Source of the DNA: an uncultured Verrucomicrobiota bacterium
Lineage (GTDB): Bacteria; Verrucomicrobiota; Kiritimatiellia; JAAZAB01
Assembly (NCBI GenBank): GCA_964475405.1
Contig: CAYYWX010000009.1
Location: 2,407-66,406 of the forward strand
Direction of reading: 5' to 3'
Length of the DNA: 64,000 nucleotides
The position numbers were made by a program, and so were the translations under genes. This document shows positions 18,051 to 60,490 of the stretch, one piece after another. Numbering within the stretch: the first letter of the stretch is position 1; every line of letters begins with the position of its first letter. The notes beneath the pieces were generated by a model, which saw only the letters and a list, made by a program, of their open reading frames with translations, made no database searches and was not told the origin of the DNA.

Positions 18051-18123
18051 GGGCGGTTAGCTCAATTGGCAGAGCGCCACCCTTACACGGTGGATGTTGT
18101 GGGTTCGAGTCCCTCACCGCCCA
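18051..18123 (+). tRNA. tRNA-Val (anticodon TAC)
   Basis: Cloverleaf folds by hand. Acceptor GGGCGGT/ACCGCCC, D-stem GCTC/GAGC, anticodon stem CCACC/GGTGG with loop CTTACAC, T-loop TTCGAGT. One U-U mismatch in the T-stem. CCA is not encoded. Confidence 0.8.
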
Positions 18124-33737: not shown

Positions 33738-34669
33738 GGTTTGTCATCCTGGTGGTCCGGCTCGCCCGTTCCGGGCGATGGTTCGGGCGCCGGCGTTTTT
33801 TTCTCATCGTCTATGGATTGCTCTTCGGAAACATTTTCTTCACCTTCATCGCCATCATTGTCTTCGTCATCATCATCTTCATCGTCCTCGTCGTCCTCTT
33901 CCTCTTCGTCTTCTTCTTCGTCATCCTCGACTTCCTCCTCCACTTCCTTGGCCTCATCCTCGTCCTCATCGGCATCATCATTCGCTTCGTCTTCTTCTTT
34001 TTTTTCTTCCAAATCCAATTCCTGATTTTCGGCGCTTTCCTGCGCTGATTTTTCAGACTGCGCCTTGATCCTTTCCGCCTCCTTGCGGCGCAGTTGCTCG
34101 ATGCCCGGCAAATGGTTGATGTCCTGCAGGCCGAAATGTTCCAGGAAAAGCTGGGTGGTGCCGTAGAGCAGGGGATGCCCGGGCAAATTACTGCGGCCGA
34201 CAATCTTGATCAGCTGGCATTCGAGCAAATGACGCACGATGTTATCGACATTGACGCCGCGCACTCCCTCGATTTCAGCCCGGGTAACCGGCTGGCGATA
34301 AGCAATGATCGCCAATGACTCCAAGGTCGGCTTGGAAAGACGGCTTGGCTTGCCGCTGTTGAGCATGCGCCGCAGCCACGGACCGCAATCCGGGTCGGTC
34401 TGCAGGCGGAAACCGCCGGCAACCTCGGCGAGGTGCATGCCGGCGTTTGCCTGGATCAAATCAACCTTGATCTGCTCCAGCGCGGCGCAAATCTCGCTTT
34501 CCTTGATTTTTGCGAATTGACGGCAGGCCTCGTCATGGCCTTCCGCTTCCTCTTCGGCGGTCTGGACAAAAATCTTCTTGAAATCCGGGGCTGAAACCGA
34601 TTTTTTGGCGGCGAACAGCATCGCGCCGATTATCTTTTTCAGGGTTAATTGCTCTGTTGGTAAAGACAT
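33734..34669 (-). CDS. scpB: segregation and condensation protein B with a long poly-acidic C-terminal tail
   Basis: The N-terminal roughly 190 aa match ScpB winged-helix domains. The C-terminal roughly 110 aa are E/D-rich low complexity. Confidence 0.8.
   Translation of the reverse strand: MSLPTEQLTLKKIIGAMLFAAKKSVSAPDFKKIFVQTAEEEAEGHDEACRQFAKIKESEICAALEQIKVDLIQANAGMHLAEVAGGFRLQTDPDCGPWLRRMLNSGKPSRLSKPTLESLAIIAYRQPVTRAEIEGVRGVNVDNIVRHLLECQLIKIVGRSNLPGHPLLYGTTQLFLEHFGLQDINHLPGIEQLRRKEAERIKAQSEKSAQESAENQELDLEEKKEEDEANDDADEDEDEAKEVEEEVEDDEEEDEEEEDDEDDEDDDDEDNDGDEGEENVSEEQSIDDEKKTPAPEPSPGTGEPDHQDDKP
33817..33982. repeat. codon-level low-complexity tract (GAN/GAR repeats) encoding the ScpB acidic tail
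   Basis: The plus strand reads ...tcatcgtcctcgtcgtcctcttcctcttcgtcttcttcttcgtcatcctc... Coordinates are estimated from residue numbering. The tract also generates several spurious ORFs in other frames. Confidence 0.7.
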
Positions 34670-34721
34670 ATTTTATGTTCCTTTATGTATAACAGAAGTC
34701 AGAGATCAACACGACGCGCAT

Positions 34722-34799
34722 TGTCATACTGAGCGGAGCGAAGTATCTCCGTCGTGCGGATAGCCGCGGCAGAGATTCCTCGCGATGCTCGGAATGACA
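34722..34799. repeat. intergenic hairpin element, copy A (TGTCAT...GAGGAATCTC family)
   Basis: Left arm tgtcatactgagcggagcgaagtatctc and inverted right arm gagattcctcgcgatgctcggaatgaca. Lies between scpA and scpB. Confidence 0.65.
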
Positions 34800-34833
34800 A
34801 TACATACCGTGTATAACGCATTGATTATCTTTA

Positions 34834-35568
34834 TCATTCATTTGCGCGCACGATCATTATTTCGCCGAATGTCTGGTCCTGTTTTGCGGTTATCTGGTGC
34901 AAACGCACCAGCTCCAGCACGGCCAAAAACGTGCAGATAATCTCATGCCTGGTCGCGAGATGGTCAAAAAGGGTGAAAAACGGGACGCTTATTTTCTCCT
35001 TTATGATAGCAAGCAGCATTTCAATCTTGTCGGCCACGGTTATCTTGTCGGCGAATATTTCGCCGATCACCTCCGGCTCGATCCTTTTTAAAGCGTCGTT
35101 AAAGACGGAAATCAAGTCGAAAATCGTCACTTCATCCAGGCCGATTTCCGGGGAGACAACCGCCTGGACGTCCTCGCTCCCGCGCAAAAACGTGTTGCTC
35201 TGGCTTATTTCCATGCCCTGCAGCAGGCCGGCCGCGTCCTTGAATTTCTTGTATTCCACCAGCTTGCGGATCAGGTCCCAGCGCGGATCCTCCTCCTCCG
35301 GCTCAAGCTCGGGGCGTTCCTCCGGCGGCAGCAGCAGGCGGCTTTTGATCATGAGAAGCGTCGCGGCCATGACGAGAAAATCGCCGGCGATATCCAGGTC
35401 AAGCATGCGCATCAGGCCGAGGTATTCCATGTATTGGCGCGTGATGAGCTCGATCGGGATGTCGTAGATGTCAACTTCATCCTTTTTGATCAGGTACAGG
35501 AGAAGATCCAGCGGGCCCTCAAACACTTCCAGCTTGATTTTTAATTCGTCAGTCTGCTGAACCGGCAT
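34834..35568 (-). CDS. scpA: segregation and condensation protein A
   Basis: LEVFEGPLDLLLYLIKKDEVDIYDIPI N-terminus typical of ScpA. Confidence 0.85.
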   Translation of the reverse strand: MPVQQTDELKIKLEVFEGPLDLLLYLIKKDEVDIYDIPIELITRQYMEYLGLMRMLDLDIAGDFLVMAATLLMIKSRLLLPPEERPELEPEEEDPRWDLIRKLVEYKKFKDAAGLLQGMEISQSNTFLRGSEDVQAVVSPEIGLDEVTIFDLISVFNDALKRIEPEVIGEIFADKITVADKIEMLLAIIKEKISVPFFTLFDHLATRHEIICTFLAVLELVRLHQITAKQDQTFGEIMIVRANE

Positions 35569-45120: not shown

Positions 45121-45186
45121 TGTCATTCCGAGCCGAGGCGAGGAATCTCGTTATTGTTGAGATGCTTCGCCAAGCTCAGCATGACA
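45121..45186. repeat. intergenic hairpin element, copy B (TGTCAT...GAGGAATCTC family)
   Basis: tgtcattccgagccgaggcgaggaatctc, loop gttattgtt, then gagatgcttcgccaagctcagcatgaca. Lies in the divergent region between the M23 gene and pcm. Confidence 0.65.
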
Positions 45187-46116: not shown

Positions 46117-47382
46117 CTATATTTTTACAATCGCCGCGCAATAGCCGCCGTCAGTTCGCGCAGAAGGCGGAAAATATTTTTTTTCGGCCGCAAGCTGAAA
46201 CGAAGGATTTTTTTTAAGCCACGACTTCACGAGCGCCTCGTTCTCTTCCGGTTCCAGGCTGCAGGTGCTGTAGACCAATGTGCCGCCGCTTTTGAGAAGC
46301 GGCGCGAGCCGGTCGAGCATTTTCCTCTGGGTCCCGGCAATCAGGCGCAACCCCTCCGAGTTGAAACGCCAGCGGATATCCGGTTTGCGGCGAATGACGC
46401 CCGTATTGGAACAGGGCACGTCGGCCAGGATGCGGTCATATAGCCCGTCCGCCGCGGTCATTTTCCCGAGGATATTTTGTTTTTTTACTTCAACAAAATC
46501 CGCTATGCGCAGGCGCTGGAAATTGGCCGCCATGACCCGGATGCGGTCATCGCTGGAGTCAAAGGCGCGCAATTTGCCGAGACAGCGCATTTTCTCCGCG
46601 ATCAGGAAAGTCTTCCCGCCCGGCGCGGCGCAGGCATCGAGGATGTTTTCGCCCGGCCGGGGATTCAGGAGTTCAATCGGGTTGGCGGCGAAGGGATCTA
46701 TCACCAGGAACATGCCATCGGCGTATCCCAACAGATCTTCAACCCGCAGTCCGCGGGGCAGGGGATAATAATTGCCGTTTCCCGGCAACGGCCGAACGCC
46801 TTTCTGCTCCAGATGGGAAAGGAACGATTGCACCTCGCCGGCCGGTTTCAACTCGTTGACTTTGATGATGACCTCCGGCCGGGTATTGTTCCATTCGCAG
46901 AGGCGCAGCGCGGACGCCGCGCCGTAAAATTTCTTCCAGCGGTCCATCAGGAGGTCGGGGTGGGAATATTTTACGCCCGGGGGCTGTTGGTTTATTTCGG
47001 CCAGTATATTTTCACGCTCGCGGCCGGCGCGGCGCAGGACGGCATTCACAAAATCGGCCTGTTTTGAAGAGAATTTTATCTTGGCCGCCGCGACGGTTTC
47101 GCTGACCGCGGCGTAATCGGCGACTTTATCCATCATAAGGAGCTGATAAAGGCCGGTAAGGAGGAATGATTCCAGCAGGGGCGGGGGAAGATGGCGCGCG
47201 GATCGTTTAATGACCCACTCCAGCAGACGCTTCCAGCGGACGACCCCCTGGATGATCTCGGTCACAAAGGCCCGGTCTTTCAGGACGGCATCCAGCATCC
47301 GGTTGGGAAAATCGCCGGATACCAGCCAGCGGGTGATTATCTGCGCGGCCAGGTAACGGGGATTGGTGCTTGCTTCCGTCAT
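46117..47382 (-). CDS. rsmB: 16S rRNA (cytosine-C5) methyltransferase RsmB/Sun
   Basis: N-terminal NusB-like domain and a C-terminal NOL1/NOP2/Sun MTase (DACAAPGGKT ... PCSNTGV). Confidence 0.8.
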   Translation of the reverse strand: MTEASTNPRYLAAQIITRWLVSGDFPNRMLDAVLKDRAFVTEIIQGVVRWKRLLEWVIKRSARHLPPPLLESFLLTGLYQLLMMDKVADYAAVSETVAAAKIKFSSKQADFVNAVLRRAGRERENILAEINQQPPGVKYSHPDLLMDRWKKFYGAASALRLCEWNNTRPEVIIKVNELKPAGEVQSFLSHLEQKGVRPLPGNGNYYPLPRGLRVEDLLGYADGMFLVIDPFAANPIELLNPRPGENILDACAAPGGKTFLIAEKMRCLGKLRAFDSSDDRIRVMAANFQRLRIADFVEVKKQNILGKMTAADGLYDRILADVPCSNTGVIRRKPDIRWRFNSEGLRLIAGTQRKMLDRLAPLLKSGGTLVYSTCSLEPEENEALVKSWLKKNPSFQLAAEKKYFPPSARTDGGYCAAIVKI

Positions 47383-51782: not shown

Positions 51783-52210
51783 GCGGTTGGTATGGCTGTA
51801 AGCCGGATTCTGTATTCAATGCCCGTCCATACGGGCCTGGATGATGATCATTTATCTTATACCGGAACAGAGTCCCGGTAGTTTTAGCGATCAACCCGAA
51901 ACTGCTTTGCCAGGGGCAAACAAGACGGGCCGCCTTATTCAGTTTCCTATTTGATCTTGCTCCGGATGGGGTTTGCCTTGCGACCGGGCATCTCGGCCAC
52001 GGCCCGGTGGTCTCTTGCACCGCCTTTTCACCCTTACCGCCCGCGCCTTGAGGGCGCAAGCGGCGGTTTGTTTCTGTGGCACTTTCCGTCTCTTCCGTTT
52101 AATCGGAAGCCCTCCCGACATTACATCAGGACATCCCGCCCTATGGAGTCCGGACTTTCCTCTTCGGAACAAAAATCATCCCGAAGCGATCATCCGCCAA
52201 TACCTTCCGC
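51783..52210 (-). ncRNA. rnpB: RNase P RNA (bacterial type A)
   Basis: The minus strand reads GAGGAAAGUCCGGACUCCAUAGGGC (P4), CACAGAAACAAACCGCC, GGUAAGGGUGAAAAGGCGGUGCAAGAGACCACC, GGCAAACCCCAUCCGGAGCAAGAUCAAAUAGG and ACAGAAUCCGGCUUACAG. The ends pair as P1. The ORFs called in this region are spurious. Confidence 0.8.
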
Positions 52211-57798: not shown

Positions 57799-58012
57799 CT
57801 AATCTAAATCCGCACGTAAGCAAACTAATTGACCGGTAGTTTATTAACGCACTCCAATAACGACGGCTCAGCCAGAGACTTCGCCCCACCTTTAAAACAT
57901 CACACGACGATTGTCATTCAAGGTAGGGCGAGGCGTCCCTGCCGAGCCGCTCCAAATGGGCATTACCGCATGTTGGGTCTCCGATTCGCACGTGTTACGT
58001 ACGGATCGGGGT

Positions 58013-58534
58013 CTAGCAAACGATCGCAGAAAAGACAGGATATTTCGACAGCTTTGTCCGCCCTTTCAAAAACCCCAGTTCAATTAAAAACGCGATTTCA
58101 ACGATCTTACCGCCCAGTTTTTCGACCATTTCCGCCGTGGCGGCCGCCGTGCCGCCGGTGGCAAGCAGGTCGTCAACGATCAGAATGGTCTCGCCCGGCT
58201 TGATGGCGTCGACATGCATGCTGAGCGTGGCGGAGCCGTATTCAAGCTCATACGACTGCTCGATGGTCTGGAACGGCAATTTCCCCTTTTTGCGGACGGG
58301 TATGAAGCCGGCACCCAGCTTTAATGCCACCGCGGCGCCGAAAATAAAACCGCGCGCGTCCACCGCCGCGACCTTCGCGATGCTTCCCTTCGCGTGGCGC
58401 TTGCAGAGGATATTAATGGCGTTCTTGAAAAGTTTCGGATCGCCCAGGATCGGCGTGATGTCCTTGAAGATGACGCCCTTTTGCGGAAAGTCAGGAATGT
58501 CGCGGATGGCTGATTTCAGTTTTCGAATGCTCAT
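58013..58534 (-). CDS. apt: adenine phosphoribosyltransferase
   Basis: 173 aa. PRPP motif ILIVDDLLATGGT. Confidence 0.9.
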   Translation of the reverse strand: MSIRKLKSAIRDIPDFPQKGVIFKDITPILGDPKLFKNAINILCKRHAKGSIAKVAAVDARGFIFGAAVALKLGAGFIPVRKKGKLPFQTIEQSYELEYGSATLSMHVDAIKPGETILIVDDLLATGGTAAATAEMVEKLGGKIVEIAFLIELGFLKGRTKLSKYPVFSAIVC

Positions 58535-59472: not shown

Positions 59473-60246
59473 TCATTTGGCAATTGAAGAGAACAATCTT
59501 TCCGCGTTTCCAAATGTCAATTCCGCCACCGCCTCGACCGGTTCATTCAGCAAGGCGGACGCCGCGCGCGCGACCAGCGGCAGATTGGCCGGCTCGTTAA
59601 ACGTTCCTTCCGCGCCGACCGGAGTGATGTCGGGACTGTCGGTCTCCAGCAGGAGGCGCTCTTTTGAAACGGCCAGCAAAGATTTGGCCCCGCGCTTGCT
59701 GCCCGGGCGCGTTATGGCGCCACTGAATGAAATGCTCAATCCCATTTCTTCAAGCGGCCGCACAAGTTCAGGCGAGCCGGAATAAGTGTGCATCATCCCG
59801 CCGTATTTGACGCCGCCCTCCTGCTTCAGGATTTCCAGCATCCGGCCCCAGGCCTGGCGGCAATGGATAGTGACCGGGCGCTTTAATTCGCGCGCCAGGC
59901 GCAATTGCGCGATAAACGCCTCCTCCTGCGCGGCCAGGTCGCTTGCCCCCGGAAAATTATCCAGGCCGATTTCCCCCACCCCGGACGGCACCGAGAGCAG
60001 GAATGACCTGAGCTTTTCCAGCCAATTACCGGACCTCCCGGGGACATGCAACGGATACAGGCCGAACGAGGGCGATACGTTCTTGTATTCAAACGCGATG
60101 TTCCGGACCGCCTCCCAGTCCTGTTCCTCGCTGCCGCAGCATGACATGCGGACGACTCCCGCCGCGCCGGCCCGGGCCATCACATGCTCCAGCCGGTCGC
60201 CAAATCGTTTGTCCTGCAAATGACAATGCGCGTCAAAAAGGTTCAT
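59473..60246 (-). CDS. tatD: TatD-family metal-dependent hydrolase
   Basis: DAHCHL start and typical TatD His/Glu/Asp positions. Confidence 0.85.
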   Translation of the reverse strand: MNLFDAHCHLQDKRFGDRLEHVMARAGAAGVVRMSCCGSEEQDWEAVRNIAFEYKNVSPSFGLYPLHVPGRSGNWLEKLRSFLLSVPSGVGEIGLDNFPGASDLAAQEEAFIAQLRLARELKRPVTIHCRQAWGRMLEILKQEGGVKYGGMMHTYSGSPELVRPLEEMGLSISFSGAITRPGSKRGAKSLLAVSKERLLLETDSPDITPVGAEGTFNEPANLPLVARAASALLNEPVEAVAELTFGNAERLFSSIAK

Positions 60247-60294
60247 GTTTTCAGCGCCTAGTGGAATGTATCATGCAAATGTATGTTTATGGGT

Positions 60295-60399
60295 TGTCAT
60301 GCTGCCTGCCCGCCATAGCATATTTGCGACGGCGGGAGAGTAGCGAAGCATCTCCATTAAAACGAGATTCCTCTCCGCCTGCGGCGGATCGGAATGACA
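60295..60399. repeat. intergenic hairpin element, copy C (TGTCAT...GAGGAATCTC family)
   Basis: tgtcatgctg...gcgaagcatctc, then cattaaaac, then gagattcctctccgcctgcggcggatcggaatgaca. Lies between queG and tatD. Confidence 0.6.
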
Positions 60400-60490
60400 G
60401 CCCCATGATTTTTAAAGTTTTTTCGGTCTCATAAATTCATTTACATTACACTATCATTCAAAAGAATACCTGGAAAATATTTCGCGGATA

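Follow-up and report, generated by a model that had tools for sequence, protein, structure and literature searches.

The closest described system is a pairing of short repeats with a single-strand nuclease in Neisseria (Chenal et al., Nat Commun 2025, PMC11893778). The repeat NTS (CGTCATTCCCGCGMAVGCGGGAATCYRG) and its variant NTSvar (CGTCATACTCGGGNNNNNCCCGAGTATC), which read CGTCAT-TCC-...-GGA-ATC and CGTCAT-ACT-...-AGT-ATC, respectively, are bound as ssDNA hairpins, with no binding of dsDNA, RNA or the reverse strand (PMC11893778). The nuclease, SsnA, is a single-domain protein of the Ssn (cd10448) GIY-YIG family, 94 aa long, that cuts a few nucleotides upstream of NTS; in N. meningitidis, cleavage is governed by the three bases before the palindrome and binding by the C after it (PMC11893778). 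SsnA lowers transformation by NTS-bearing DNA about five-fold, and binding and cutting of sense-strand ssDNA by the cognate Ssn were shown for fully paired NTS-type motifs in four species (PMC11893778). Ssn-related motifs (SRM) were found near 71% of ssnA homologues and on both sides in 42%, and the SRM-ssn-SRM layout was called IS-like, with mobility not shown (PMC11893778). The published SRM query, HGTCWYN(0-2)YYVSBRHN(0-5)WNVSBRGN(0-2)RNCYNB, was built by hand from 29 genomes, and the survey was made without phages, archaea or metagenomes (PMC11893778).

A broader group of repeats, the CGTC-tagged REP superfamily, had been defined earlier (Di Nocera et al., BMC Genomics 2013, PMC3733652). 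Its units have a CGTC tag, in some cases TGTC or CCTC, a stem whose first two pairs are AT, and an unpaired tail of 3 nt; the repeats are mostly inverted dimers, heterodimers are common, and no transposase was found. Members include Neisseria dRS3 and Rickettsia RPE-4 and RPE-6, and palindromes with more than one mismatch were dropped from the survey unless they were dimer partners (PMC3733652).

The window analyzed here, a 64-kb stretch of DNA (64,000 nucleotides) assigned to an uncultured member of the Verrucomicrobiota, is ordinary chromosome with 52-60% G+C. Its closest named relatives are Kiritimatiellia MAGs, and contigs encoding an identical ScpA come from groundwater metagenomes and have the same 164-nt scpA-scpB gap. 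Equally ordinary are a bacterial class A RNase P RNA at 51784-52205 (minus strand, 214 bits) and a tRNA at 18051-18123 (plus strand). A sequence-only reading of this stretch had described three intergenic elements at 34722-34799, 45121-45186 and 60295-60399 (copies A, B and C), and inspection of the sequence confirmed their positions, the TGTCAT...ATGACA ends common to all three and their arm sequences. Copy A lies between scpA and scpB within the minus-strand row trpS-scpA-scpB-pheA, copy B between an ORF without assignment and pcm, and copy C between queG and tatD on the minus strand. The mechanical ORFs 34683-34841 (minus), 34578-34763 (plus) and 60141-60434 (plus), of 52-97 codons, cross the elements.

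The sequence-only reading had taken each element as one imperfect inverted repeat with a conserved TCC/GCT mismatch in its stem. This was a misreading, as the triplet of each arm finds its complement in the 3' part of that arm (TCC/GGA, GCT/AGC or ACT/AGT), which makes each arm an independent hairpin. Each window element thus consists of two separate hairpin units in inverted arrangement, with the TGTCAT tags pointing outward and the ATCTC ends facing a short spacer. The unit motif is TGTC-AT-NNN-GA-GC-(3-4 nt)-GC-GA-N'N'N'-AT-CTC, with a longer stem-loop in place of GC-loop-GC in the units of copy C. The TGTC tag, AT...AT, the CTC tail and perfect complementarity of the triplets are found in all six units; three have a loop of 3 nt, one has a 4-nt loop, and in two a long insertion takes its place.

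In copy A, unit A1 (34722-34749, plus strand; TGTCAT ACT GAGC GGA GCGA AGT ATCTC) and unit A2 (34772-34799, minus strand; TGTCAT TCC GAGC ATC GCGA GGA ATCTC) are separated by a 22-nt spacer (34750-34771), which holds the GCGG-ATAG-CCGC mini-hairpin (34756-34767) that had already been pointed out. Copy B combines unit B1 (45121-45149, plus strand; TGTCAT TCC GAGC CGAG GCGA GGA ATCTC, with the 4-nt loop) and unit B2 (45159-45186, minus strand; TGTCAT GCT GAGC TTG GCGA AGC ATCTC) around a 9-nt spacer (45150-45158, GTTATTGTT). Unit C1 of copy C (60295-60354, plus strand; TGTCAT GCT...AGC ATCTC) has a 37-nt CCCGCC...GGCGGG stem-loop as its distal part and is followed by a 9-nt spacer (60355-60363, CATTAAAAC) and by unit C2 (60364-60399, minus strand), in which TGTCAT TCC GA and GA GGA ATCTC enclose a longer distal stem between the GA steps (TCCGCC GCA GGCGGA). 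The triplet pair is ACT/AGT in A1, TCC/GGA in A2, B1 and C2, and GCT/AGC in B2 and C1. The arms of every copy therefore differ in their stems, making all three copies heterodimers in which complementarity is kept within arms and not between them, and the TCC-type and RCT-type arms do swap sides from copy to copy, as had been noticed.

A covariance model, R1, was built from 99 sequences, mostly units of other genomes, and its scores for A1, A2 and B2 are partly circular since these three window units were among them. Scanned over the 64 kb, R1 recovered five of the six units with E-values between 2e-8 and 8e-15, and gave no other match below E 3: A1 at 47.1 bits (E 8e-15) and A2 at 44.2 bits (E 9e-14), both training members, B1 at 39.2 bits (E 7e-12), B2 at 39.5 bits (E 5e-12; also a training member) and C2 at 30.1 bits (E 2e-8). 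C1 is missed by the model because of its long insertion and was found by regular-expression match. The string GTCATNNNGAG occurs five times in the window against 1.17 expected, a count reached in 0 of 100 shuffles.

The same motif is widespread outside the window. A search with the pattern TGTCATNNNGAGCN{3,4}GCGANNNATCTC, in which both triplets were left free, matched 108 viral-contig stretches and, among species-representative genomes, at least 120 stretches from dozens of phyla. These genomes include Chloroflexota, Acidobacteriota, Bacteroidota, Nitrospirales, Planctomycetales and Verrucomicrobiota, and also Bdellovibrionota, Cyanobacteria, Clostridia, Saccharibacteria, Omnitrophota and a MAG labelled Nanoarchaeota. 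Hundreds of further copies with covarying structure were found in all, across public collections of genomes, viruses and metagenomes, and the similarity, which might have been confined to the short termini, extends over the whole unit with its covarying stem. A literature search by motif strings returned primers only.

The structure of the unit is conserved by covariation. Although the triplets were free in the search, they were fully complementary in 243 of the 268 units among the viral and genome matches listed (128 of 135 viral and 115 of 133 genome units, against 1 in 64 by chance), and more than 10 triplet types occur among the units found. An alignment of 99 sequences (A3) shows 43, 9 and 26 double changes at the three variable pairs, and 98.6% of its cells are paired; shuffles give 89.3%, and sliding the partner gives 11-55%. 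The strand that carries G.A/A.G is the sense strand; the opposite strand would carry T.C/C.T. Loops in the units of other genomes are mostly GNA, and d(GCGAAGC) is a classic, unusually stable DNA mini-hairpin.

The predicted minimum-free-energy fold of A1 as DNA is ....(((((..((...))..)))))..., and all six window units are predicted to take this fold or a version with a longer distal stem, C1 retaining its basal AT-GCT/AGC-AT stem. The 28-29-nt units have weak nearest-neighbour energies (-1.6 to -3.3 kcal/mol, z about 0) and would have escaped notice by folding energy alone; C2 folds at -9.5 kcal/mol (z -3.65). When whole elements are folded, dimers A and B are predicted to do best as a single long hairpin that joins arm to arm and pairs the tags (-14.6 to -18.7 kcal/mol), whereas dimer C is predicted to form local hairpins. 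We speculate that heterodimers may be so common because they disfavour the long arm-to-arm form; a comparable idea is put forward by Di Nocera et al. (PMC3733652).

As RNA the dimers fold strongly (-30 to -48 kcal/mol, z -4.6 to -6.1), and copies A and C lie between co-directional genes, so the elements could be read as intercistronic stabilisers, attenuators, terminators or small RNAs transcribed with scpA-scpB and queG-tatD; transcription of many REPs has been suggested by Di Nocera et al. (PMC3733652). Several observations make such a role very unlikely. No U-tract or T-run follows the units, and the sole terminator-like match, at site B, is what chance would give (1 found against 0.5 expected). 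Rfam holds no family for the motif: searches at gathering thresholds over the whole window and in E-value mode at site A returned only chance matches of microRNA type. The unpaired tag and tail are invariant across dozens of phyla, which mere hairpin function would not require, and the symmetry of inverted pairs fits recognition on both DNA strands. Some phage contigs carry their units sense to the genes and others carry them antisense, and this mixed orientation suggests a role on the DNA strand and not in mRNA. Moreover, SsnA shows no binding to its motif in RNA form (PMC11893778). An intrinsic terminator in particular is not supported, the GC-rich hairpin having no following U-tract.

The arrangement seen in the window, a pair of units with tags outward, is also the commonest one elsewhere. 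Among 153 distinct tags-outward dimers, 100 are heterodimers, and their spacers range from 3 to 59 nt without conservation. Partners within these 153 dimers (loci L007-L314) are not random: CCT+TCT occurs 38 times, CCC+TCC 13 times and GCT+TCT 12 times, and in the commonest pairs the difference is limited to the first triplet base. The pairs in the window, TCC+GCT and TCC+ACT, differ at two positions and are rare elsewhere. One instance of GCT+TCC, the pairing of copies B and C, lies at 2650-2850 of L146, a locus from the MAG labelled Nanoarchaeota, which could reflect a binning error or a real transfer into a DPANN archaeon.

Units are also present in real phage genomes with capsid, adaptor and portal genes. 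Four phage contigs (L011, L025, L112 and L038) have a unit in almost every intergenic gap; within a contig all units point the same way, which is sense to the genes for L025 and L112 and antisense for L011 and L038. L025, at least, belongs to a syntenic cluster of phage genes, the representatives of which match SU10-like families of capsid and adaptor or SPP1-type families of portal. Tandem arrays were observed as well. At the end of a viral-classed contig (L055, 8400-8980), a tags-outward CCT+TCT dimer is repeated five times with an 87-nt period and T-rich spacers, resembling a BIME-like array. In a Bacteroidaceae MAG (L123, 3456-4290), a single G.A-type unit (GTT/AAC) and a conserved 77-nt spacer are repeated eight times with a 105-nt period, all copies in a single orientation and none with an inverted partner.

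A protein partner emerged from the genes beside the units. All-against-all clustering of ORFs near units recovered only the syntenic phage module (capsid, adaptor, portal) at the viral loci and only abundant housekeeping families (two-component systems, HIT, ArsR, hydrolases) at the genome loci. The link to a GIY-YIG gene came only from ORFs lying between two close units, first in L102, L201 and L168; L201, for example, reads unit(+), an ORF of 96 aa, unit(-). We then examined 80 metagenome loci picked solely by similarity to the GIY-YIG protein of about 95 aa. A unit lay within 250 nt of the GIY-YIG gene in 64 of these 80 loci (51 upstream, 55 downstream, 42 on both sides), compared with a background of 0.2 units per kb away from the gene, and G.A-type units flanked 62 of the 80. 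The commonest layout was unit(+)-ORF-unit(-) with tags outward, whole elements measuring 351-539 bp.

These loci also allowed the tag and tail to be assessed independently of the search pattern. In 169 hairpins of the form AT-XXX-GA..GA-X'X'X'-AT near ssn genes, selected with neither tag nor tail required, the bases before the stem were G, T and C in 167, 166 and 167 cases, respectively, and C followed the stem in 165. The conserved positions before and after the stem are those found critical for cleavage and binding of NTS (PMC11893778).

The partner protein matches Pfam GIY-YIG, its nearest solved structures are the UPF0213 proteins 1ZG2 and 1YWL, and it is 46% identical to the N. gonorrhoeae SsnA orthologue. 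The latter has Y6, Y17 and E64 at the positions mutated in the published study (PMC11893778), has NTS repeats on its flanks, and matches the profile of the 80 proteins at E 4e-38, a profile of which it is itself a member. By sequence, then, the GIY-YIG partner belongs to the Ssn family. NCBIfam and PHROGs do not name it, and literature searches on COG2827, UPF0213 and YhbQ brought up nothing of relevance. Co-variation between protein and stem triplet was weak (identity 0.629 versus 0.607, a difference reached by 11 of 1000 permutations) and is confounded by common descent.

Two individual ssn loci showed further features. At the N. gonorrhoeae locus (L323, NZ_CP119140.1, 1881578-1883250), on a 2.17-Mb chromosome that PLSDB lists as a plasmid, the NTS tags face the ssnA gene. 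Around G.A-type ssn genes the tags point outward in 22 of the 42 two-sided loci and inward in 4. On a Planktothrix agardhii plasmid (L324, NZ_LR882964.1, 18150-19822), a homologue of ssn, with 66% identity to the L201 protein, has units on its flanks and sits inside a defence island, between an MmeI-type restriction-modification gene and the DISARM gene drmA.

The likeness of the window units to Ssn-related motifs is extensive. Both they and NTS have a (C/T)GTC tag, an AT-led palindrome and then ATC; the outer triplets TCC/GGA and ACT/AGT are identical to those of NTS and NTSvar; and both are intergenic and occur in clusters and dimers. A hairpin palindrome of 20-50 nt immediately followed by C is shared too, the C being present after the stem in all six window units. 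Units flank a GIY-YIG gene of about 95 aa on at least one side in 80% of loci and on both in 53%, compared with 71% and 42% in the published survey (PMC11893778). The two differ in the stem, which in the window type has a tandem G.A/A.G step and a 3-nt loop, whereas NTS-type motifs have a fully paired 8-bp stem and a 4-nt loop. They differ also in hosts (here Kiritimatiellia, many uncultured phyla, phage contigs and a Nanoarchaeota-labelled MAG, none of them in PMC11893778) and in orientation, with tags mostly outward around ssn here but facing the gene at the one N. gonorrhoeae locus inspected, and the window copies have no adjacent ssn gene.

The G.A/A.G step keeps the published SRM query from matching any of the six window units or any of the 80 regions that flank ssn genes; the query is a search tool and not a definition of the family. 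Its only matches in the window, 46372-46399 and 58007-58037 (both minus strand), lie inside ORFs (rsmB and an unnamed ORF, respectively), and two matches against 0.6 expected from shuffles look like chance.

The units likewise resemble the CGTC-tagged REPs (PMC3733652), with an unpaired tag that may be TGTC, an AT stem start, an unpaired 3-nt tail, inverted dimers, frequent heterodimers and no RAYT. The families described by Di Nocera et al. have 8-9 fully paired positions, 4-5-nt loops and the tail consensus CCA, whereas in the window units two of nine stem positions are G.A, the loop is 3 nt (4 nt in one) or a long insertion, and the tail is CTC. As far as these text descriptions show, the window units fit none of the families CGTC-1 to CGTC-4.

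A further alternative is that the units are classical REPs or REPINs mobilised by a RAYT (a Y1 tyrosine transposase), or PATE-type derivatives of IS200/IS605. The look is similar, with short tagged palindromes, inverted dimers and tandem arrays, and, as in REP, BIME and REPIN systems, the palindromes would serve as ssDNA hairpins for a small nuclease whose single gene, an autonomous partner, lies between repeats. The tag, however, is TGTC and not GTAG, and the recurrent neighbour is a gene for a GIY-YIG nuclease, which would act by hydrolysis, instead of an HUH Y1 transposase, which forms a covalent intermediate. At the 120 genome loci among the matches listed and the 108 viral loci, no family of transposases is a recurrent neighbour of the units, and Di Nocera et al. 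found CGTC units around no RAYT (PMC3733652). REPIN-RAYT systems are mostly vertical and lineage-specific, whereas the TGTC motif is nearly identical across phyla. IS200/IS605 and PATE ends are also recognised as ssDNA hairpins and cut beside the hairpin, but both of their end hairpins lie on the same strand, while ends of the window type are inverted, giving one 5'-side sense unit per strand, and the enzyme family is another. We therefore consider descent from RAYT or IS200/IS605 systems hardly credible.

A classical MITE is not supported either, there being no target-site duplication and the associated protein being a GIY-YIG nuclease and not a DDE transposase. Of the roles proposed in the sequence-only reading, the REP-like one has thus held up, whereas the MITE (no duplication, GIY-YIG partner) and the RNA terminator, stability module or small RNA (no U-tract, conserved tag and tail) have not.

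Comparison with relatives, which had been suggested as a check, was informative at site A. In the window lineage the scpA-scpB gap is 164 nt long with the 78-nt dimer in it, while in four relatives with ScpA identities of 92, 90, 83 and 79% it measures 72, 44, 44 and 38 nt, respectively, and contains no unit; nor was any unit found in the 5.7 kb around scpA-scpB in each of the four. The dimer was gained at site A in the window lineage, after the split from the relative with 92% identical ScpA. The relatives' intergenic DNA can be aligned only at its two ends, so that neither the insertion point nor a duplication at A is definable. At sites B and C no polymorphism could be scored, the TatD protein not being on record and the sole Pcm contig carrying the element. 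We infer mobility from presence and absence only.

No target-site duplication is visible at the three window copies, in agreement with the sequence-only reading, and none was found beside 23 complete unit-ssn-unit elements, apart from a 25-nt array spacer on both sides of L294. At L294 this sequence (AGTTGGAAGGTCAGATCTCCGAACT) lies on both sides of the unit-ssn-unit element and belongs to an array whose constant spacer is common to a gene-less dimer, the ssn element and a further unit. In L201 (3250-3800) the unit-ssn-unit element is centred exactly in a perfect 16-nt palindrome (GAACCAAACACCCCCC ... GGGGGGTGTTTGGTTC), as if an existing hairpin had received it in its loop; none of the 23 other complete elements shows this. 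A transposon-style insertion signature was rejected: the palindromic flank of L201 and the 25-nt direct repeat of L294 are single cases, and target-site duplications are absent.

The gain at site A also bears on whether the window elements are fossils, that is, genuine Ssn-related motifs whose nuclease was lost or never present and which persist as inert dimers with at most incidental effects on their neighbours. A profile search found no ssn gene in the 64-kb window (best E 0.9), and 19% of genomes with more than 200 SRMs have no detectable homologue (PMC11893778). At a density of six units per 64 kb, however, a genome would contain a few hundred, and 81% of such genomes carry ssn (PMC11893778). 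In all six units the triplet complementarity, the TGTC tag and the ATC tail are intact, which points to recent origin or selection, and the gain at site A postdates the split from the relative with 92% identical ScpA. We regard the fossil interpretation as improbable.

In our view the window elements are very probably ORF-less inverted pairs, with tags outward, of Ssn-related motifs or TGTC-tagged REP units. This reading takes in the covarying structure of the unit, the conserved tag and tail, the linkage to ssn elsewhere, the homology of the partner to SsnA and the gain at site A. We infer, in addition, that this Kiritimatiellia genome encodes a cognate Ssn which cuts the G.A-type hairpin; the copies would then have spread through Ssn-dependent events. 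That no ssn gene lies in the 64 kb weakens the Ssn reading, as it leaves the cognate nuclease unproven in this organism; its gene is presumed to lie elsewhere in the genome, outside the window. Also against this reading stand the lack of a match to the published SRM query, the weak predicted energies of the 28-29-nt units and the long fold predicted for dimers A and B, in which the tags are paired.

A probable mechanism follows by homology with NTS and SsnA of Neisseria. When a strand becomes single-stranded, its 5'-proximal unit reads 5'-TGTC-AT-NNN-GA-(GC-loop-GC or longer stem-loop)-GA-N'N'N'-AT-CTC-3' and can fold into a hairpin of nine stacked positions, namely five Watson-Crick pairs, the tandem G.A/A.G step and two G-C pairs, closed by a 3-nt loop or a variable extension, with the TGTC tag and the C(TC) tail left unpaired. 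This hairpin is the putative binding site of the single-domain GIY-YIG endonuclease Ssn of about 95 aa, which would act only on sense-strand ssDNA and nick it a few nucleotides 5' of the tag. The full element is unit-ssn-unit, about 350-540 bp, and the window copies are its gene-less form, comparable to REPINs or solo REP dimers.

A bolder extension, which we hold as possible but on the whole doubtful, is that G.A-mismatch units with 3-nt loops and their Ssn clade form an actively mobile selfish element spread by phages, which would make it the first case in prokaryotes of mobile DNA that a stand-alone GIY-YIG ssDNA nuclease drives, with the gene-less heterodimers of the window as MITE-like passengers and the G.A step as a feature of a new Ssn specificity class. 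If this were true, horizontal transfer by phages would account for a motif that is almost the same in dozens of phyla, and Ssn proteins of the new class would specifically recognise the tandem G.A step.

The kind of element described here is known already as a very widespread bacterial repeat, and its protein partner and biochemical mode were published in 2025. New are the groundwater Kiritimatiellia host, the subclass with a tandem G.A mismatch and 3-nt loop that the published SRM pattern misses, and a site A that is empty in relatives. For the window itself, three apparent mystery RNAs or MITEs are removed, and the short ORF calls over the elements (e.g., 34683-34841 and 60141-60434) are probably spurious; repeats of this kind are a likely source of spurious small "hypothetical proteins" in automated annotation. 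For the family, work on the Ssn/SRM system has so far dealt with Neisseria, Wolbachia and a small number of reference genomes; the system also has a very widespread subclass, which is invisible to the published pattern and is present in uncultured phyla and in bona fide phage genomes. This is relevant to the counting of SRMs, to the mining of Ssn proteins as ssDNA tools with new specificities, and to the question of whether SRM-ssn-SRM elements are mobile.
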